Below are positions 31,410 through 45,509 of a stretch of DNA of 64,000 nt, piece by piece. A program made the translations under genes and the position numbers. The notes below the pieces were generated by a model that saw nothing but the letters and a program-made list of their open reading frames with translations, ran no database searches and was not told the DNA's origin. How positions within the stretch are numbered: position 1 is the stretch's first letter; every line of letters starts with the position of its first letter. The stretch lies in the NCBI RefSeq assembly GCF_030144855.1, contig NC_082722.1:20212001-20276000 (forward strand), written 5' to 3'. Origin of the DNA: Hypanus sabinus (taxonomy: Eukaryota).

Positions 31410-34400
31410 TTTTTTGTAATATATTTTTTATTGAAGTTCATCAAGCAAACATTTCCATAAGATGTTTTTCAGTCATTGTACTTATATATCATATAATCAT
31501 ATATATCACAAATCTGCACAGTGTTTTTATCTGAGGTATTCACTTATAAAAAAAGAGTGGAAAGAAGAAACAAGCAAAAGGAAAGAACTATGTGCAAGTA
31601 TGGGGTGATATTTTTTTGACAACAGTTTCATTGATTTGTGAGAATAAAATCAGGCCTATGAGGTATTATTTAGTTAAACCATTTTTACAGTGCGAATCAA
31701 ATTATTCCAGCTTATGATTAACAGATGCTGTTATCTTCTCCATTTTGTAAATGTCAATTGCAATTTCCATCCAAGTATTTAACGTTGAGCTATCATGTGA
31801 TAACCATTTCCTAGAAACAGTCTATTTACGAGCCATCAACAGTATATTATTTTAATATTTATCTCTTTTCAATCATTCTTGAGGTACATATCCAAAATAT
31901 ATGGTCTTACTCTACAAGGGTATTTCACATTTAAAGATGTCTTGTAGGGCATTTTGTATCCCCCTCCAATAGTTTTTGATAACATGACAGTCCTAAAAAA
32001 TATGATAATGATTTGAATTTTGATTTCCACAATTTCTCCATCAAAAAGGGAAGTTACTAGCATAATGGAATTTCTGAGCGGGTGTAATAACATACCTTAT
32101 GAAATTTCTCCATCCAAACTCCCTCCATTTCTGTGAACTGGTACACTTCGATTGATATCTCCATATTGTTGGGCATTCTTCCTCAGATATAATTATCTCT
32201 CCTTCCTTCTCCCATTTGGTTTTAATGTATGAATTCGAAAGTGTTTTCAGATTTGTCAACCCCTTATCATGCTTGAAATGATTCTACTACCATTATCAGT
32301 ATTATATGCTTTTCTAAACAGCTCTATCGAGCATGTATTCGCATTGGTTACATTTTTAAGCGTCTCATTAACATATTTGCGCATCTGTAAATACCGATAA
32401 AAATTTTGCTTTTCTGATAAGTGTTTCTCTTTAAGCATTTCAAAGCTGAACAGTGGTCCTTCTTTCACTATGTTGCAAAGAAATGTTATTCCTTTATCTG
32501 TCCAGACCTTAAATCTAGCATCCAATTTATTTGGTGTAAAATCCGTGTCATATGCTCCCCATTTAAGAATTGTAATGTCTCCCTCTAGATTATATTCTTT
32601 TATAGTAGTTTTCCCTTTTTTAAGAGTCAATTTCACCCATGGGTTATCAATGGTATTTATGTACCTTTGCAGGTTGTTATCAGCCAAAATTGCTTGTATG
32701 GGGATGGGAAGTACCTGTTCCTCAAAGTGTTTCCATTGAGCGTCATATGATGGGTTGCACCAACATATCACAGCTCTCACCTGTGCTACAAAATAATAAT
32801 CTCTAACAGAAGGTAAGCTCATCCCCCCCGTTTCTTTTGCTAATTGTTTAGCTTTGAGACGATCACTAGGCATTGTACCCTGCCAATTATACCTTGATAG
32901 CATCTTGTTCCATTCATCGAATTGATTTTGATTTATCTCTATTGGTATGGTCTGAACAAGATATAACATTCTGGGCAGTATATTCATTTTAATAGACTCA
33001 ATCCTTGAACTGAGACAGAAAAAATGGAACCAGGTTCCATCTTGCCACATCTTCCTTATTTTTTTATATAAAGGCTGATAATTACATTATGATAATTCTG
33101 TCAAATCTTTTGACATAATGATGCACAGATATTTGAAAGACTCATTCTGCCATGCCACGGGGTATCGACCTTCAATATCCCTTGGTTGGTTATAGTAATA
33201 TGAAAGTAATTGGGTTGTGTCTCTGTTTATCTTGTATCCTGTTAATTGACCATATTGTTAAAAGGATTATGTCAATTTAGGTAAAGAGTATGTTGGTTGC
33301 CCGAGATAGATCAAAATGTCATCCGCATAACAAGCCAATTTATGCTCTGATATTTTTAATAGTAATTCCCCTGATATCTTCATTTTGTCTGATGTATTCA
33401 GCTAATGATTTGAGATATAACGCGATGCGTAGCAGTGACCATGCACAACCCAGTCTCGAGCTCGTTTCTAGGATAAGATTATTTGATAAATATCCATTGA
33501 TTTTAATCCTAGCAGTAGGATTGTCATATAGTGTCTGTATAGTTTTAATAATTGTGTCTTGGAAAACAAATCTATGTAAAACTCTGTAAACAAAATTCCA
33601 ATTAACCGAATTAAATGCTTTTTCAGCGTGCACGCGTATCACTATTGCTTTGATTTGATTTTTATGTATATGATCCATAATGTGCAGTATACTTCGTATA
33701 TTGTCTTGTGTCTGGCGTTGTCGTATAAAACCTGTCTGATCGTTATGTATCTGTATGGGTAGAAACACTTCTAATCGTTTGGCCATGAACGAGGTAAATA
33801 ACCTATAATCTACATTAAGAAAGAATATTGGTCTAAATAACCCGCATTCCCTTTCATCCTTGCCTATATCTAAGATTATCTCTTCCTTCCAACTGGGTGG
33901 CATTTGTGCCTTTTTAGAGCCCTGTGCAGAGTAGGGAGTAAAACAGGAATTAACTCATTTTTTTAATTGTTTGTACCACTCTGCCGTATACCCATCTGAT
34001 CCTGTTGAGTTGCATAATTTAAGCCTACTAACTTCAGCATTTACTTCAACTTCAGTTATGTCAGCAGTCAGCGTTCTATTTTGCTCTTCGCTTAAAGTGG
34101 TTAACTCTACAGAATTCAAGAAGGTGTGAATTTGGGTTATGCCTCTCGCTGGAACTCTGGAATATAGACTTTTGTAAAACCCTTCAAAAGTTTCTTGAAT
34201 TTCACTTAGCTTACTTTTTATCATTTTCGTTCTTGGGTCACTAATTCTATGAACTGTATTTTCTGCTATCTTTTTTTTCAGTTTCCACGCCTAGATTTCG
34301 ATGCACTTTCATAATGTCTCTGTTTCAGAAACATTGTTATTACTGATATCTTGCGTAAACAAACTATTAATTTCATTCCTATTTTTTTTTATATCCCGTA

Positions 34401-35530
34401 ATGTATCCTGTGCCAAATTCAATTTGTGTTTTCTTTCTCGAGTTCCTTCAGCTGTTTTGTAATTCCTCTAACGTTTTGTTACTTATTTTTTTTTTTCTTA
34501 TATGAAGATATCGCTATCATTATCCCTTTTATAAGACCGCCTTCAGAGTATCCCATAAAATGGGAGGTGAAACCTCTCCATCATCATTAAATTCTAAGAA
34601 GGTACCAATTTCTTTTTTTTATGTTAGTCCTTAATGTACGGATCACTGAGTAGACGAATTTAGTTTCCAAATAGTATTCTGTGGTTGTAGGGCAAAATTA
34701 ACAGATAAATATATAGGTGCATGTTCACTTACATCTACTGTCCCAATTCCACAGGTGTTTATTTTGTCTTTGTCTTTTCCAAATGTTATGAAATAGTCTA
34801 TTCTTGTATATACAGAATGGGGAGCAGAAAAATCTGTGTAATCCCTTCTGTCAGGGAAAAGGTACCTCCATATATCAATTAAACGAACAACCTCAAAAAT
34901 GTATTAACTTTCTTATGTAAATATTTTGTTTCATAGGTTTTTCTATTGGAAGAGTCGAAGTCTGGTTGTAATTGTAAATTTAATTCTCCGCCACATATCA
35001 GGAGGCGTTCTGTTTCCGTTACCATAATATCAGTAATTTTCTGAAAGAAACCAATATCACATCCGGGGTGTGCGTATATATTCAATAGAGTAACTGAAAT
35101 GCCGTCTATATTTCCCCTTACCAGAATATATCTGCCCTCTTTATCTCCCATTTCGAATACTTTTTTTTTCAAAAGTTAGCTTACTTGAGATAAGAATAGC
35201 AACTCCTCTCCTATGTCCTGATTTATATGAGGAGAAAAACAAATTAGTGAAACCCATTCTCTTTAGTTTTTTATGCTCATTATCACTTAAATGAGTTTCC
35301 TGCAAACATACTACATGGGCTTGTTCTTTTTTTTTTCATTTTGGATAAAATTCTGTTACTTTTGATTGGATTTAATAGCCCATTGACATTAAAAGAAACA
35401 AATTTTACCTTGTTCTTAGCCATCTGTATTTATCTGTCAATGTATCATTGAAATTAGAATAAAAGTTAATCGATCTACTCCCTGAACAAGTAAGAACCAG
35501 AAACGCAAATAATAACAAAAATGGCAACGA
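31410..35530 (-). mobile_element. Second L1-clade family, ORF2 essentially complete, decayed, 5'-truncated
   Basis: ATG at 35423 gives MAKNKVKFVSFNVNGLLNPIK; ORFs 34879..35172 (endonuclease), 33340..33903 (RT, QTGFIRQRQ...AEKAF), 32256..33050; A-rich 3' end near 31410. Confidence 0.9.
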
Positions 35531-35689: not shown

Positions 35690-35872
35690 GGGCAGTTGCT
35701 CATGCAACTCAGCCTCCTCTCTCCACGCCGATATAGCTTGGCTATGGTGCAATCGGAGAGCAATGTGTGGTTAAGTGTCTTGCTCAAGGACACAACACGG
35801 TACATCCGCAGAGGCGCGAACTAGCGACCTTCAGATCACTAGACCAACGCCTTAGACGACTTGGCCACGCGC
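35690..35872 (-). mobile_element. tRNA-derived SINE with V-SINE-like core
   Basis: Minus strand: GGCGCGTGGCCAAGTCGTCTAAGGCG (A-box-like), GGTCGCTAGTTCG (B-box-like), then gtgtccttgagcaagacacttaacc core. Confidence 0.6.
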
Positions 35873-38147: not shown

Positions 38148-38490
38148 TACAATCGGCCCTCCTTATCCGCGAGGGCTTGGTTCCGGGACCAGATACCAAA
38201 ATTCGCGGATGCTCAAGTCCCTTATTTAACATTGACCGTGCGGTGGACATTAGGACCTAGTGTCGTTGCACTGAATCCGCAGTGTTTCAGTTCACGAAAA
38301 TAATCACGATCGCGATTCAAACTAATTTGGAAGTAATTAAGCGATCGGAAAAAGGTGAAACACCGTCGGTCATTAGAAAATCCTTAGGCTGCAATCGGTC
38401 AACGATCAGATCTATTTTAATGGAGAATGTGAAAGGCCCTGTCCGATGGAAGCTACCATTATTACTAAGCAATGCAGTGATTAAATTATT
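38148..38490 (+). mobile_element. Tigger/pogo DNA transposon 5' fragment
   Basis: TIR-like tacaatcggccctccttatccgcg; TIAIQTNLEVIKRSEKGETPSVIRKSLGCNRSTIRSIL is a CENP-B/psq-type helix-turn-helix. Confidence 0.75.
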
Positions 38491-39466
38491 GAAATACCCC
38501 ATCACCCTCCCCGACCAAACTTTAGCATTCTTGTTTGGGTGTAAGTTGCGTGTTGTGTCCCCTGTGTAGCATCAGCACCCGGAAATTACATATAGTCCAA
38601 AATGCGCGGTTAAACGATTCAGATTGTATACTTAATTGTGGGGTCAGTAGAGAAACAAAAGAAAAAGGAAAACAATAAAAGGCGCCAATAATTTCATAAA
38701 CACTTCTGTGCACAAACGTTGGAGCTCACGGATTCCACTTCACTGATCCTCCTTTGCAGTCAGCCACTGGGTTCCCGCCCCCAGTCCGGGTCCAGAGGGT
38801 CCTGCAACCGGCTTCTCAAGCCACTTCTTCTCTATTCATCCAGCTCGGGCCTTCTACTCCAGGCCCTCTCAAACTAATAGCTTTCACACAGGCCGAAAGA
38901 GTAACATTGATCCAAATTGGTTTGTAAATGAATACACGTCCCGTTATCACTATTTACAATCCAACCATGCTGCTATAGAGAATCACTGCCTCAGCAGTTA
39001 ACGGTACAGCAAAGCCACTTTATTCACCTTAGCAGTAGCATAAAAGAAGAAACACTTCCACTCTGTTACGCCCTTATGCACTGTTACCTAGGGGCTACAT
39101 AGGCCAAACTTTCTGAGAGTTTCCTTATCCGAGACCTCCGTACACCCTCACATATGCCCTTCAGGATGGGACACTAATGGGAATACCTCGGGTCTGCTTG
39201 CCAAATCCTCTTTCAAATTCTCACTCATGCCCCCACTGCAACTCGGAGCCTCCTGTCCTCTGTCTAGGCACACCTGTCTCTCCTTCCGTGTCCTGCCGTA
39301 ACCCAGGCTGCCCACAGTTAGCTCCAACATCACCCCTCACCCCACCATTACCTGACTTAGTGGGAGAAGTGCCAGGAGTCTCTTCATCCAACAAGGGTAA
39401 GTTAGCGAAAGGCAGAATGTACCACACCTCCATCTTATCATCCGACGAATCCGTATTGTTCCCCTT

Positions 39467-40030
39467 TTACTCGATTGGTAGCCGCTGGTCAGTTCTCTCC
39501 ACGCTGGAGCACTTGGCCTGGACTGCTACTGCAGCCTCTTCAGCCTCCAATGATTGAGACGACAGATTCTTCTTGGACTCCTCCAACTTTCGCCATAGTC
39601 TCAGCAGTTCTGACTCAGGCGTCCTGGCCATCTCAATCTGGGACGCAATTATTCCTGCAGCTTCTTCCACTCTGACCTGAATTGCAGCAGTTAAGGACTG
39701 TTCAGCTTCCAGTTTAGTGTTCACTGAACTATCTCCAGCTTTTTCCTCCTAATGACGTCTTCCAGGTCAGCTTTCAATGTTTCCATTTCATTTAAGCTGT
39801 CGATGGTCATCTTCAAGTTTCCTTCAAGCTTCCGCTTCCCTCTTCCGAGATCTGTCCACAATTGCTTCACCTCCTCGGAAGTGTAAGCTAACTCCACCCT
39901 CTGGGCTCTCGGTTTTCTGTTGAACGTAGTCAGGCAATTTTCTTTGTTTTCCCCAACATGCAAGTCTACCAACTGGTTCTGGATCACTTTCTTCAGTCTC
40001 TGCTAGGAATTCTCTCTCTCCGGCTTCACT
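39467..40030 (-). pseudogene. MYH16: Processed fragment of a sarcomeric myosin heavy chain rod (MYH16-like) inside the Gypsy pol
   Basis: [17 protein letters not shown]...[63 protein letters not shown]...LEES, KKNL...EAEEAAVAVQAKCSSVERTDQRL align to the myosin II S2/LMM region. KMTIDxLNEME recalls MYH16 (from memory, not searched). Confidence 0.8.
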
Positions 40031-41919
40031 TCAAACTTGATCCCGCAGAGACTGTCTGCGACCTTCTCCAGACCTGACACGTGTCCAGAGAAAGCTTTAG
40101 CACTTTAGTTCTCAGCAGCTCCTGCAGCAATATCCCTTTATATTCTTCAAGACAGATCCAAATACTAGGAGATCATCCAAATACACCAAACAAAGAATTA
40201 CCCTACCGTCTTCCTCATGCCCCGTTAGAAAGTTTCAAGGGCTCCGGATAAGCCCTGGGTCATCTTTTCGGACTGGAAGAAACCCAAGGCCGTCTTCTCC
40301 TTATCGGCCTCTCTGATCGGGATCTTTTAGCATTCACTTCTCACATTCAACAGATTAAACCACTTTGCACCACTCAGACAGACCAGCGCATCTTCAATAC
40401 TCGGGACCACACACTGTTCAGGTACAGTTCGCCTGTTCAGGGTCCTATAACTTACACAAACGTTGCCTGTGTCCTCCACGTCTACAGGGGCCACACGTCG
40501 CAACCTCTCTCTCACCGAGGTGTCTTCAACTGTAAACTCCCCATCCCCCGTGGTAAAACGGAACATCCACTAGGAGGTGCTTCACCATCAGATACCTCCC
40601 CTGTGCCGTACCACCATAAGCTCTGTTTTAAATTTAGTACCAGACGAACGCTGCTATACACGTCCTCACAAGCAGCTCGAAACATTGGGTGCACAGGCAA
40701 TGCCACCAAACAGCTCTCAGCCGCCGCCTCCTGGCCGGACCCCATGTGACTCCTCACTATCGGGGTGTCGGTCCCCTCCAGAATCGACACGCTGTCCGTC
40801 TCAAGTGTGCCCGGACACATCAGCATTAACGATTCACGGACCTCAGACACCCACACCTCGGCCTCCGAGAACTCCAGTTTCACTGACCAATAATCATCTT
40901 CTGGATAATGCGAAGCACTGATATTCCGCATTTCCAGTGCTCGGAATGGTGTCAAGTGAAAATGCTTCAAGCACCGGTTGGAAAACGAACTGTGCAACAA
41001 CCAACAACTTGACCTGCGCTTCATTGTCGAGGATGGCCTGAGGATGGCTTGCTTCCATTCGGAACGACACACTAAGGTGTGGTCCCAATAAACCCTCAGA
41101 AATAGGGGCTTTTCCTTCCGAGAGTTCTTTGGTCTATTGCTGGGAACGTGTTCCCCCAGCGACACCAAGCCTGCGCTGGGCTTCCCCACTGGGCCTGCGC
41201 TAAATTTCCCGATACCTCTCTGATTAGCTGAACAACTTTGGGAGGGGCAAATCTCCTTAACTGATCCCACTAGCACCGCAAGCAATTTATCTGCTCCCTT
41301 CCGAGCAGAGAAGATAACCTGAAAACTTTCCCCCAAATCTCCTGACACGGTTAAGGAAAGCCCACCAAGTGCTGCATCATACTTACAGTCGAGCCAAACG
41401 CAATTTCCCCCGTTTTCAGGCAATTGTCAACTGTCACTACAGGGTAATTGCCCCTGACAGTTCTATCACCGTCACCAGCACGCCTGTTCAAACTTTCATC
41501 CAAACCGTACCGCTCTTCCTCAATCGAGCACTGTCACTCATCTAACAACAGTGAGATCAGTTCCGCCCACGTCTCGTACGCATCCGCCCCCTCCCTGCTG
41601 AGAATATGGACAGCCCATGGTGCCACCTCACACAGGGCACCAATAGACACTGGCAATCCCACCTCCGTGACGTCAGTGCTAGCCCGCACTGCAGCAAGGT
41701 CTGTGCGCGCCATATTATCAATTTTTCAAACTCGCTATCAGCATTAACCACTTAAAAATCGAATTAACAATCCATCTAAGGTGCGAATATCCACCCTACT
41801 CAGCCCATTACTAACCCCAATCCCACAGAGGCGCACATGTCTAACCGCAATCCCACAGTGACACCACGCACTGATTGAAACAGGGCAAACGCACAGCACC
41901 CTAAAAAATGCATGCCCCG

Positions 41920-44199
41920 GTCAGGTCGCTGATCTGTAAGTGGGTAAGCATCTGGGGGACAGTGATCACTGCTCCCTAGTCCTTAGCATTATTATGAAAA
42001 GGATAGAATCAGAGAGGACAGGAACATATTTAATTGGGGAAAGGCAAATTATGAGACAATAAGGCTAGAATTTGCGGGTGTGAATTGGGATGATGTTTTT
42101 TGAAGGAAAATGTACTATGGACAGTGGTCGATGTTTAAGGATCTCTTGCAGGATTTTCGGGATAAATTTGTCCCGGTGACGAAGATAAAGAATGGTAGAG
42201 TGAAGGAACCATGGGTGACAAGTGAGGTGGAAAATTTGGTCAGGAGGAAGAAGGCAGCATACATGAGGTTTAGGAAGCAAGGATAAGATGGGTCTGTTGA
42301 GGAATATAGGCTAGCAAGAAAGGAGCTTAAGAAGGGGCTAAGCAAAACAAGAAGGGGACATGAGAAGGCCTTGGCGAGTAGGGTAAAGGAAAACCCAAAG
42401 GCATTCTTCAGTTATCTGAAGAACAAATGGATGACAGGAGTGAAGGTAGGACCGATTACAGATAAAAGTGGGAAGATGTGCCTGGAGGCTGTTGAAGTGA
42501 ACGAACTCCTCAGTGAATACTTCCCTTTGGTATTAACCAATGAGAGGGAACTTGATGACGGTGCGTACAATATGAGCGAGTTTGATGTTCTGGAGTAACT
42601 TGATATTAAGGGAGAGGAGGTGCTCGAGTTGTTAAAATGTATTAGGACGGATAAGTCTACGGGGCCTATCGGAATATTCTTCAGGCTGCTCCACGAAGCG
42701 AGGGAAGACATTGTTGAGCCTCTGGCTAGGATCTGTATGTATTCATTGTCCACGGGAATGGTACTGGAGGATTGAAGGGAGGCGAGTATCGCCCCCTTGT
42801 TCAAGAAAGGTAGTAGGGATAGTCCAGTTAATTATAGACCAGAGAGCCTTACGTCTGTGGTGGGAAAGCTGCTGGAAAAGATTCTTATTGATCGGATTTG
42901 TGGGCATTTAGATATCATGGTCTGTTCAGGGACAGTCAGCATGCATTTGTGAAGGGCAGATCGTGTCAAACAAGCCTGTTAGATTTCATTGAGGAGTTGA
43001 CCAGGCATATAGCTGAGGGTAGTGCAGTGGATGTGATCTGCATGGATTTTAGTAAGGCATTTGACAAGGTTCCACATGGTAGGCTTATTCAGAAAGTCAG
43101 AAGACATAAGATCCAGAGAGGTTTGGCCAAGTGGATTCAGAATTGGCTTGCCTGCAGAAAGCAGAGGGTCGAGGTGAAGGGAGTACATTCAGATTGGAGG
43201 GCTGTGATTAGTGGTGTCCCACAAGGATCTGTTCTGGAACCTATAATTTTTGTGAATTTAATTAACGACATGGATGTGTGAGTAGAAGGGTGGGTTGGCA
43301 AGTTTGTAGACGATACTAAGGTTGGTGGTGTTGTAGATAGTGTAGACGATTGTCGTAGATTGCAGAGAGACATTGATACAATGCAGACGTGGGCTGAGAA
43401 GTCTCAGATGGAGTTCAACCCAGAGAAGCGTCAGGTGGTACATTTTGGAAGGACAAACTCCAAGGGAGAGTACAAAGTAAATGGAACTATACTTGGTAAT
43501 GTGGAGGAACAGAGGCATCTGGGGGTACATTTCCACAATTCCCTGAAAGTTGCCTGACAGGTAAATAGGGTAGGTAAGAAAGCTTATGGGGTGTTAGCTT
43601 TCATGAGTCGAGGGATAGAGTTTAAGAGAAGCGATGTAATGTTGCAGTTCTACAAAACTCTGGTTAGTGCACACTTGATGTACTGTGTCCAGTTCTGGTC
43701 ACCTCAGTATAGGAAGGATGTGGACGCTTTGGAAAGGGTACAGAAGGGCTTTACCAGTATCCTGCCTTGTTTATAGTGTCTGGATTATGATCAAAGATTA
43801 AGGGAGCTAGGGCTTTACTCTTTGGAGAGAAAGAGGATGAGAGGAGACATGATAGAGTTGTACAAAATATTAAGAGGAATAGATAGAGTGGAAAGCCAGC
43901 GCGTCTTCCCCAGGTTACCTCTGCTCAGTACAAAAGGACTTGGCTTCAAGGTAAAGGGAGGGAAGTTCAAGGGGGATGTTAAAGGAATGTTTTCCACTCA
44001 TAGAGTGGTTGGTGCATGGAATGCAATGCCTGAGTCAGTGGTGGAGGCAGATATACTAGTGACGTTTAAGAGGCTACTAGACTAGTATATGGAGGAATTT
44101 TATGTGGGGGATTATTTAGGAGGCAGGGTTTGAGGGTCAGCACAACATTGTGGCCGAAGGGCCTGTAATATGCTGTACTATTCTATGATCTATATTCTA
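41920..44199 (+). mobile_element. CR1 LINE, endonuclease end through 3' tail
   Basis: GDSDHCSL, DSQHAFVKGRSCQTSLL, DFSKAFDKVPHGRL, GVPQGSVLEP, RGDMIELYKILRG; ctatattctat tail abuts the LTR at 44200. Confidence 0.92.
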
Positions 44200-45509
44200 T
44201 GTAACCCCACATTGTAAGACTCGTTGCATCTAGTGGCATGATCTCGGGGGTGGCTTCGCATTCTTGTTTGGGTGGATGCTGCGTGATGTGTCCTCTGTGT
44301 AACATCAGTACCCCGAAATTACATTTAGTCCACAATGTGCGGTTAGAAGTTAAAGATGTTATATTTAACTTCGGGGTTAGTAGAGAAACAAAAGAAATTG
44401 AAAGCAAATAAAAGGCTCCAATAATCACATAAGCATGTCCAGTCCACAAATATTGGAGCTCACGGATTCCCTTTCACTGATCCTACTTCGCTAGATCGCC
44501 CCTGAGCTCCCGCCCCGAGCCCAGTGGGTCCGGCTACCGTCCTCAAGCCACGTCTTCTCTTTTCATCCTCCTCGTGGCTTCTCGTCCACGCCCTCCCAAA
44601 CTAACGGCTTTCACAGAGCCAGAAAGAATAACATCTATCCCAATTAGTTAGCAAACGCATACGTCCCGTTATCACTAATTATAACCCAAACATGCTGCTA
44701 TAGAAAACCACTGCCTCAAGAGTTAACAGTACACCGAAGCTTAGTAGTAACATAAGAGATGAAACATTTACATTTACAACCAAATAATGTTAAAAAAACA
44801 TTGTTTAGAGACAAGGTGATTAATTACAGTACTTTACACAAATCAGCATAAATTTAGCCAACACGCATTAGACCTTCAAAACAGGACAGATAACAAATTC
44901 TTAACTGTCAAACATTTCCTTGCTGTATCCATTTTTCAGAGCCACTGATTTCACCCATACACTTACCTTTACAAGACTAAGTTGAGTTAGAAAGTACATT
45001 TGAGAATTGTTTGAAAGCCCGGCGCCTTCATTTAAAGGATATAAATTTTCTCCATCCGCTCACGGAGAAACACGTGACAAATTGCTAAAAAGTCTTCAAT
45101 TCGCATAAAATATAGCGGTTCCGGGATTTAGGCATACCTTACTCCCAGAAACTGAATAAAAATCCTTATACAGTACATTAAAGAAGGTGACATCAGAAGA
45201 AGATAACGTTGGAAAGAGGCTTTTGACTGGGCACACGAATGTGCACTGAATTTTGAGATATAAATCATACACAGCTCGCAAAGAGTTAGTTTAATTTGAC
45301 AACATGTTCCCTCCAGACAGCTTTGCCGAAGGTCCTGATCCTGTACTGTACTCGTCCACCTTATAATAAAAGCAGTGTTAAAGGGGTAAGGAGCAGGTTC
45401 AACATGGCATAATGAGACAATGTCAAGAATTGCCTTTTAATCAAAATGTTTCCACGATGCTTTTAAAGACGAACGAAAGGGGAATGAATGTTATGCCTCC
45501 ATGTGTATA

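Follow-up and report, generated by a model that had tools for sequence, protein, structure and literature searches.

How does a piece of sarcomeric myosin rod come to stand inside the pol region of a Gypsy LTR element, and what has kept the resulting frame open while the element multiplied? Both questions arise from a 64,000-nucleotide stretch of the Hypanus sabinus genome (hereafter the window), in which an earlier note had placed myosin peptides on the minus strand at 39467-40030. The peptides are present there and match sarcomeric myosin rod. The copy that carries them is an old, broken member of a defective family with more than 800 copies in the genome. As an explanation of the whole, we consider it likely that a Gypsy element captured host myosin mRNA, that the chimera amplified with the myosin as a passenger, and that selection acted on the path of the ribosome.

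Architecture of the chimeric element

The element occupies 38490-44772 of the window and is read on the minus strand. Its 5′ LTR (44200..44772) forms a direct repeat with the 3′ LTR (38490..39060), the ends of both being approximate, and has the terminus GGGGTTACA as in other copies. The LTR pair is 77% identical over 541 nt, and no target-site duplication of the window copy was recognisable. A later LINE insertion in antisense orientation (41921..44199, plus strand), with RT-like open reading frames at 42287-44085, interrupts the primer-binding site. We take this LINE to be CR1-like from its motifs; it is missing from the 4.2-kb full copies and is not part of the Gypsy-myosin family. Elsewhere in the window, a candidate SINE head, presumably tRNA-like, was spotted by eye at 35808-35871, and a second remnant, which we take to be LINE-1-like, lies at approximately 32250-35450.

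The coding region was compared with an autonomous relative, P0124, in which Pfam detects PNMA, RT, RNase H, and integrase, in the order gag-PR-RT-RNase H-integrase. A truncated gag on the minus strand, consisting of a PNMA-type capsid remnant (41211..41715), matches residues 203-269 of the relative (Pfam PNMA, E 0.0017, below the cut-off). It is followed, on the same strand, by a predicted −1 frameshift-type site (41150..41210; heptamer GGGAAAT in the window copy, with a predicted hairpin), a spacer and protease-derived region (40611..41187; residues 492-681), and a degenerate, internally deleted reverse transcriptase (40074..40527; residues 848-1046), with YLDD at 40183-40172. In other copies of the family, RVT_1 matches have E values of 1e-6 to 7e-3, below the cut-off. 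The stretch after the RT was considered as a frameshifted RT end, which was ruled out by alignment to the autonomous relative: it is an RNase H remnant (40030..40073, minus strand) that aligns to WAVVDKLGDYLYGAKFEVRTD of P0124. The RNase H left between RT and myosin amounts to ~45 nt in the window copy and is given as ~25 residues for the chimera.

The captured myosin extends from 40029 to 39470 on the minus strand. The segment of ~560 bp described earlier is present in extent, but three internal deletions make it a mosaic and not one continuous stretch. Piece 1 (39677..40029) comprises the end of exon Z, exon A with 72 nt deleted, exons B and C, and most of exon D, with exon junctions at 40012/11, 39979/78, 39892/91, and 39746/45, and is 85% identical to the spliced donor over 329 nt. 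Piece 2 (39574..39676) joins the 3′ portion of exon E to the 5′ portion of exon F (junction 39638/37; 84% over 100 nt). Piece 3 (39470..39583) runs from the final codons of exon G0 into exon G (junction 39573/72; 84% over 114 nt) and is entered via repeated ELEE codons, a repeat of 13/16 nt with a chance of 2e-5. Downstream, as the earlier note had it, are the post-integrase pol tail with the 3′ untranslated part (39061..39469, minus strand), which matches residues 1825-1900 and 1928-1948 of the autonomous relative, and the 3′ LTR. Past the stop, the far tail does not keep the frame.

Relative to P0124, the chimera consists of part of gag, protease, a deleted RT, the RNase H remnant, myosin, and the post-integrase tail. 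Pol residues from about 1245 to 1825 (~580 codons, ~1.7 kb), covering the end of RNase H and the integrase, are gone. The proposal that myosin stands in place of RNase H and integrase therefore holds for the integrase and most of RNase H, but not for the remnant that persists. That the chimera is non-autonomous is borne out: integrase is absent, RNase H is reduced to a remnant, and RT is deleted and degenerate. Many other copies read through from RT into myosin, whereas private frameshifts interrupt the window copy, which therefore lacks the read-through that had been supposed. P0124 and the chimera share only 63-75% identity over their longer matches, which makes P0124 a sister and not the direct parent. 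The direct parent was not found among 150 of 21651 RNase H candidates that were scored, a sample dominated by one young family. At the 5′ myosin junction, the sequence resembles both the relative (FEVRTD) and the donor (VKVETE), a microhomology that is only suggestive because the parent is unavailable. The genome also holds a large, young autonomous Gypsy family (L166, L167, L244-L246), with L167 LTRs that are 99.8% identical and at least 150 near-identical RNase H matches. Two natural forms of it exist: in 2 of the copies read, gag and pol share a frame, and in 3 pol is displaced by −1 at GGGAAAC.

The donor gene and the loss of introns

Peptides from the window match MYH7 in three separate places, at residues 999-1087 (E 1e-6), about 1145-1184, and 1365-1422 (E 3e-4). 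The best protein matches are to myosin, not to another coiled coil, and a Pfam search of the window peptides recovered no myosin family. An exon search of the genome revealed two MYH16-like genes. The donor is the MYH16-like locus at G000:C42:45264700-45503718 on the minus strand (45.26-45.50 Mb; loci L107-L135 and L228-L243), to which the window is 79-92% identical in six pieces of 44-130 nt and one of 26 nt. The canonical MYH16 gene (C27:39.5 Mb), which is 76-100% identical to shark MYH16 over most exons, matches the window at 75-85% only in pieces of 39-70 nt. It was rejected as the donor because the C42:45.3 Mb gene is closer and the tree separates the donor from MYH16. Fast, slow, and 7B-type loci matched poorly; in all, six further sarcomeric loci and another three in the vicinity proved poor donors. 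In the rod tree, the donor branches as the sister of all MYH16 (100/100); its branch is long and was flagged by the tool as unsure. The MYH16-like origin suggested earlier is thus correct as to the type of host gene and its grouping with MYH16, but the donor is a divergent paralog, placed as sister of all MYH16, and not canonical MYH16 itself.

All nine donor exon models have AG and GT ends; the rod exons are open and the introns very large. No motor exon was found in the 120 kb upstream of the rod exons, or by a search for conserved motor exons that matched 11 other myosin II loci, so the donor is possibly headless. Two runs taken, as a guess, to be RNA contain contigs that span exon E exactly and run on into exon D2, indicating that the donor is spliced; donor regions lacking coverage in these contigs carry no weight. 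Judged from its sequence, the donor is possibly a divergent, MYH16-like paralog without a motor domain, and a search of the open-access literature returned no paper on a headless MYH16 paralog. Two broken sarcomeric myosin copies with stops (L113 and L115; C42:44.41 and 44.29 Mb) adjoin the fast-myosin cluster.

Aligned to the spliced donor, the window sequence spans introns of 17,644, 27,987, 2,710, 2,104, and 22,608 bp. A sixth exon junction, at the 5′ end of the insert and with an intron of ~35.9 kb, is also crossed. The stretch therefore covers several host exons, and six GT-AG introns of the host gene are absent, as the earlier note had predicted from conserved intron positions. Across 58 copies (90 loci minus 32 repeats of the same copy), the A/B, B/C, and C/D junctions are crossed in 58/58 and E/F in 57/58, while G0/G is scored in 20/58 when 8 nt of the short G0 remnant had to be present. 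The insert replaces pol sequence, with no poly(A) or duplication around it, in agreement with the suggested capture of spliced mRNA by an LTR element and not with an independent L1-type retrocopy. Intronless, broken myosin-tail matches occur elsewhere (L097 4800-5800, L098, and L099; C18:144.80, C17:50.04, and C30:69.22 Mb). They have no link to the Gypsy-myosin internal region and are probably ordinary processed pseudogenes; one of them, when translated, presumably resembles a non-muscle myosin type.

Spread of the family and state of its reading frame

One 18-mer taken from the insert finds 826 exact genome matches (reversed control, 0) and is carried by 38/54 sampled copies, which suggests roughly 1,200 copies. 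DNA searches returned 1143-1299 first-look candidates, 40 of which were scored each time. The 54-copy set was obtained after removal of L191 and L193 (twins) and of L192 and L196 (DNA duplicates of L187). L187, L192, and L196, on small contigs, have many private frameshifts in common and likely represent one insertion multiplied as DNA. Copies were also picked by position on C1, where 45 pattern matches occur: 40 were fetched, 3 of the remaining 5 had already been sampled, and the last 2 were left out; L282 was not aligned. Among these 40, the RT-myosin junction is present in 39, the myosin-tail junction in 40, and both in 39, and hence the chimera itself amplified.

Full copies are ~4.2 kb and dispersed, with a shared structure, their own LTR pairs, and differing flanks. 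LTR pairs were found in 14/20 fetched copies and are 85-96% identical; a whole LTR is ~710 bp with TG...CA ends. Exact 4-bp target duplications flank 5/8 scored copies, plus L036 by eye, and copies have a primer-binding site and polypurine tract. The family comprises at least four age classes. Identity within groups is 87% for the old group, 94% for the younger group, and 96% on average for the commonest; 4 copies of intermediate type, like the window copy, do not enter the two-group test. The window copy is 80-82% identical to the others and branches earliest by retained sequence. Database proteins of Hypanus sabinus and Hemitrygon akajei correspond to the RT-myosin frame, the family's sequence words occur in runs of nine organisms and a metagenome, and contigs of four runs (guessed to be RNA) cover 30/30 bins of the element, which together indicate that the family is shared between rays. 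At L020 1641-1747 and 1801-2006, stretches of 105 and 204 bases, both multiples of three, are missing from contigs belonging to other runs. No paper on the Gypsy-myosin family was found in the open-access literature.

A −1 offset at GGGAAAC separates the gag frame from the second frame, the same arrangement as in autonomous L244-L246. This heptamer is found in 23/29 other copies read, in the right phase and with a predicted hairpin downstream. An out-of-frame deletion was considered for the gag-pol offset and rejected, as the offset is that of the parental −1 site. The predicted parental −1 frameshift signal survives in the family.

All 12 of the 12 junctions and deletions that arose at the lineage level are in frame. 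They are the gag deletion, the protease-RT spacer, the RT N-terminal deletion, the RT to RNase H, RNase H to myosin, and myosin to tail junctions, the jumps from D to E and from F to G0, and the changes −72, −12, −18, and −162. The internal jumps of the element fall on repeats, and the expected in-frame share for repeat-guided jumps is 38-75%. Private indels break the frame in 50/71 cases and, in the C1 position-picked set, in 35/42, counts that may be inflated by assembly errors. Shared frame-breaking indels comprise 1 nt in a G run (4/16 copies), two others found in 2 copies apiece, and 2-nt changes in 3 copies and in 2 copies. In the commonest subfamily, a further 162 nt (54 codons) of myosin is deleted in 38/39 copies. 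No stop occurs among 79 differences from the donor or among 63 variants common to at least 4 copies, and no column in either frame has a majority stop. Depletion of stops tested alone is not significant (p 0.06 and p 0.64). The frame is open over 1.4 kb in 12/39 position-picked copies. Stops are present in 3-13/54 copies at eight codon columns, which we read as repeated mutation at CGA, TGG, and CAA.

The amino acids of the open frame drift neutrally. Overall, the nonsynonymous to synonymous ratio is 32:11 for lineage-fixed versus 786:347 for private changes (p 0.61), and within myosin it is 16:6 versus 126:60 (p 0.81). Tests for purifying selection on myosin, RT, and gag in family copies detected none (gag, p 0.87). 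Invariant PR/RT sites are changed in 45/116 cases (39%) as compared to a background of 9/103, and open copies no longer match Pfam Myosin_tail_1. The donor, intron loss, replacement of pol, amplification, open frames, and neutral amino acids are, to us, virtually certain.

Proposed routes of capture, mobilisation, and frame maintenance

These data allow us to propose a mechanism. A host MYH16-like mRNA would have been co-packaged, and two template switches inside the particle would have placed myosin in pol; template switching was very probably the route of capture. The chimera was then likely mobilised by the enzymes of autonomous relatives, a helper role that we find fairly plausible. Later repeat-guided, in-frame deletions would have shrunk pol and the myosin piece, leaving the myosin as a likely passenger. 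Selection has probably acted on the reading frame, and the selected trait would be an unbroken ribosome path through the gag frame, the −1 slip, and the pol-myosin frame to near the 3′ LTR. Such a path may spare the unspliced RNA nonsense-mediated decay and thereby make it available for packaging; we lean toward decay escape as the cause. Ribosomes continuing past a frameshift are described as stripping decay factors off viral RNA (PMC10141005). The frame has stayed open as its residues drift, probably because only an RNA that can still be translated gets copied. The balance tips slightly toward selection on the translatability of the RNA and not on the myosin protein. In its fullest form, the proposal would be that the family's success needs translation but not a product, that a predicted −1 slip into a 600-codon junk frame evades RNA surveillance, that every capture and deletion was frame-filtered, and that the donor is an undescribed motor-less MYH16 paralog. 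We regard this entire chain as having an even chance of being right.

Other histories would account for parts of these observations. A processed pseudogene made by a LINE might have entered a genomic Gypsy copy, with a deletion, and been mobilised afterward, given that LINEs are abundant in the genome and that other intronless myosin-like copies are present. However, the insert is mid-coding sequence without an mRNA 3′ end, poly(A), or duplication; it replaces ~1.7 kb of pol, with the frame preserved at either end; and it fits the pattern of LTR template switching as set out in PMC5131818. We consider such an origin highly improbable. Alternatively, the open frame could be unselected, reflecting few replication rounds, RT errors dominated by substitutions, jumps that tend to be in frame, and chance. 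Repeats within the donor mRNA are indeed in frame in 46-75% of cases, and the stop tests taken alone and the neutral amino acids agree with this view. Yet even at 75%, 12/12 in-frame junctions have a probability of 0.03 or less by hand calculation, and no sampled subfamily has a fixed frameshift. At least ~90 lineage-level amino-acid changes contain no stop when 4.4% would be expected, giving ~0.02 by hand, a figure that is overstated because some of the changes lie on the donor branch. An unselected frame is thus unlikely.

A third possibility is that the Gag-pol-myosin fusion protein is useful and tolerant of substitution, for example, with its coiled coil tethering the RNA to helper particles or myosin filaments. 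The sense orientation, the frame, and its retention through several subfamilies would suit such a role, and the N/S ratio is slightly lower in shared variants (2.45 vs 3.30, p 0.26). Amino-acid constraint is nonetheless absent, 38/39 copies of the commonest subfamily have lost the 54 myosin codons, and the Myosin_tail_1 match has disappeared from open copies, all of which make a useful protein quite doubtful. We therefore prefer selection on the frame with the myosin as a passenger.

Partial parallels exist in known systems. Acutely transforming v-onc retroviruses are replication-defective and helper-dependent and carry host mRNA in an in-frame fusion with gag or pol. The ray family differs from them in having no env, a cargo without selection for function, and germ-line spread. 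Defective interfering RNAs of coronavirus and poliovirus are helper-dependent, require a frame that is open whatever it encodes, and have in-frame deletions; the ray family is an endogenous LTR family, and its frame requirement is inferred from sequence. In LTR-mediated animal retrocopies, as presented in Tan et al. 2016 (PMC5131818), a partial spliced mRNA takes the place of some of the internal ORF sequence between two LTRs, without poly(A), at a short shared switch sequence, and can be re-mobilised. The ray insert resembles these in intron loss, internal ORF replacement, and the lack of poly(A) or duplication. Re-mobilised retrocopies in the main text of that study occupy more than one site each (18 sites for nine retrocopies), whereas the ray family has more than 800 copies, several age classes, and a frame kept through repeated deletions. 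Maize Bs1 (PMC13317346) is likewise an LTR element with transduced host segments and a hybrid ORF. Bs1 joins three genes in a transcribed and translated chimeric gene, in contrast to the single donor, vertebrate host, and lack of amino-acid constraint here, and the purifying selection on the captured protein that would mark a Bs1-like functional chimeric retrogene was not found.

The capture mechanism is therefore a known one; its scale is unusual, and it comes with a testable signal of selection on the reading frame alone. Retrovirus-style gene capture in a vertebrate has here founded a family of about a thousand copies. XP_059830761.1, named 'putative uncharacterized protein MYH16', is the RT-myosin frame of this family, and copies annotated as myosin genes can mislead myosin gene counts in rays. 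The family also constitutes a natural data set on whether helper-dependent retroelements need translation in cis. If real, such a filter on frame would also account for how often captured fragments lie in frame, ready to be recruited.
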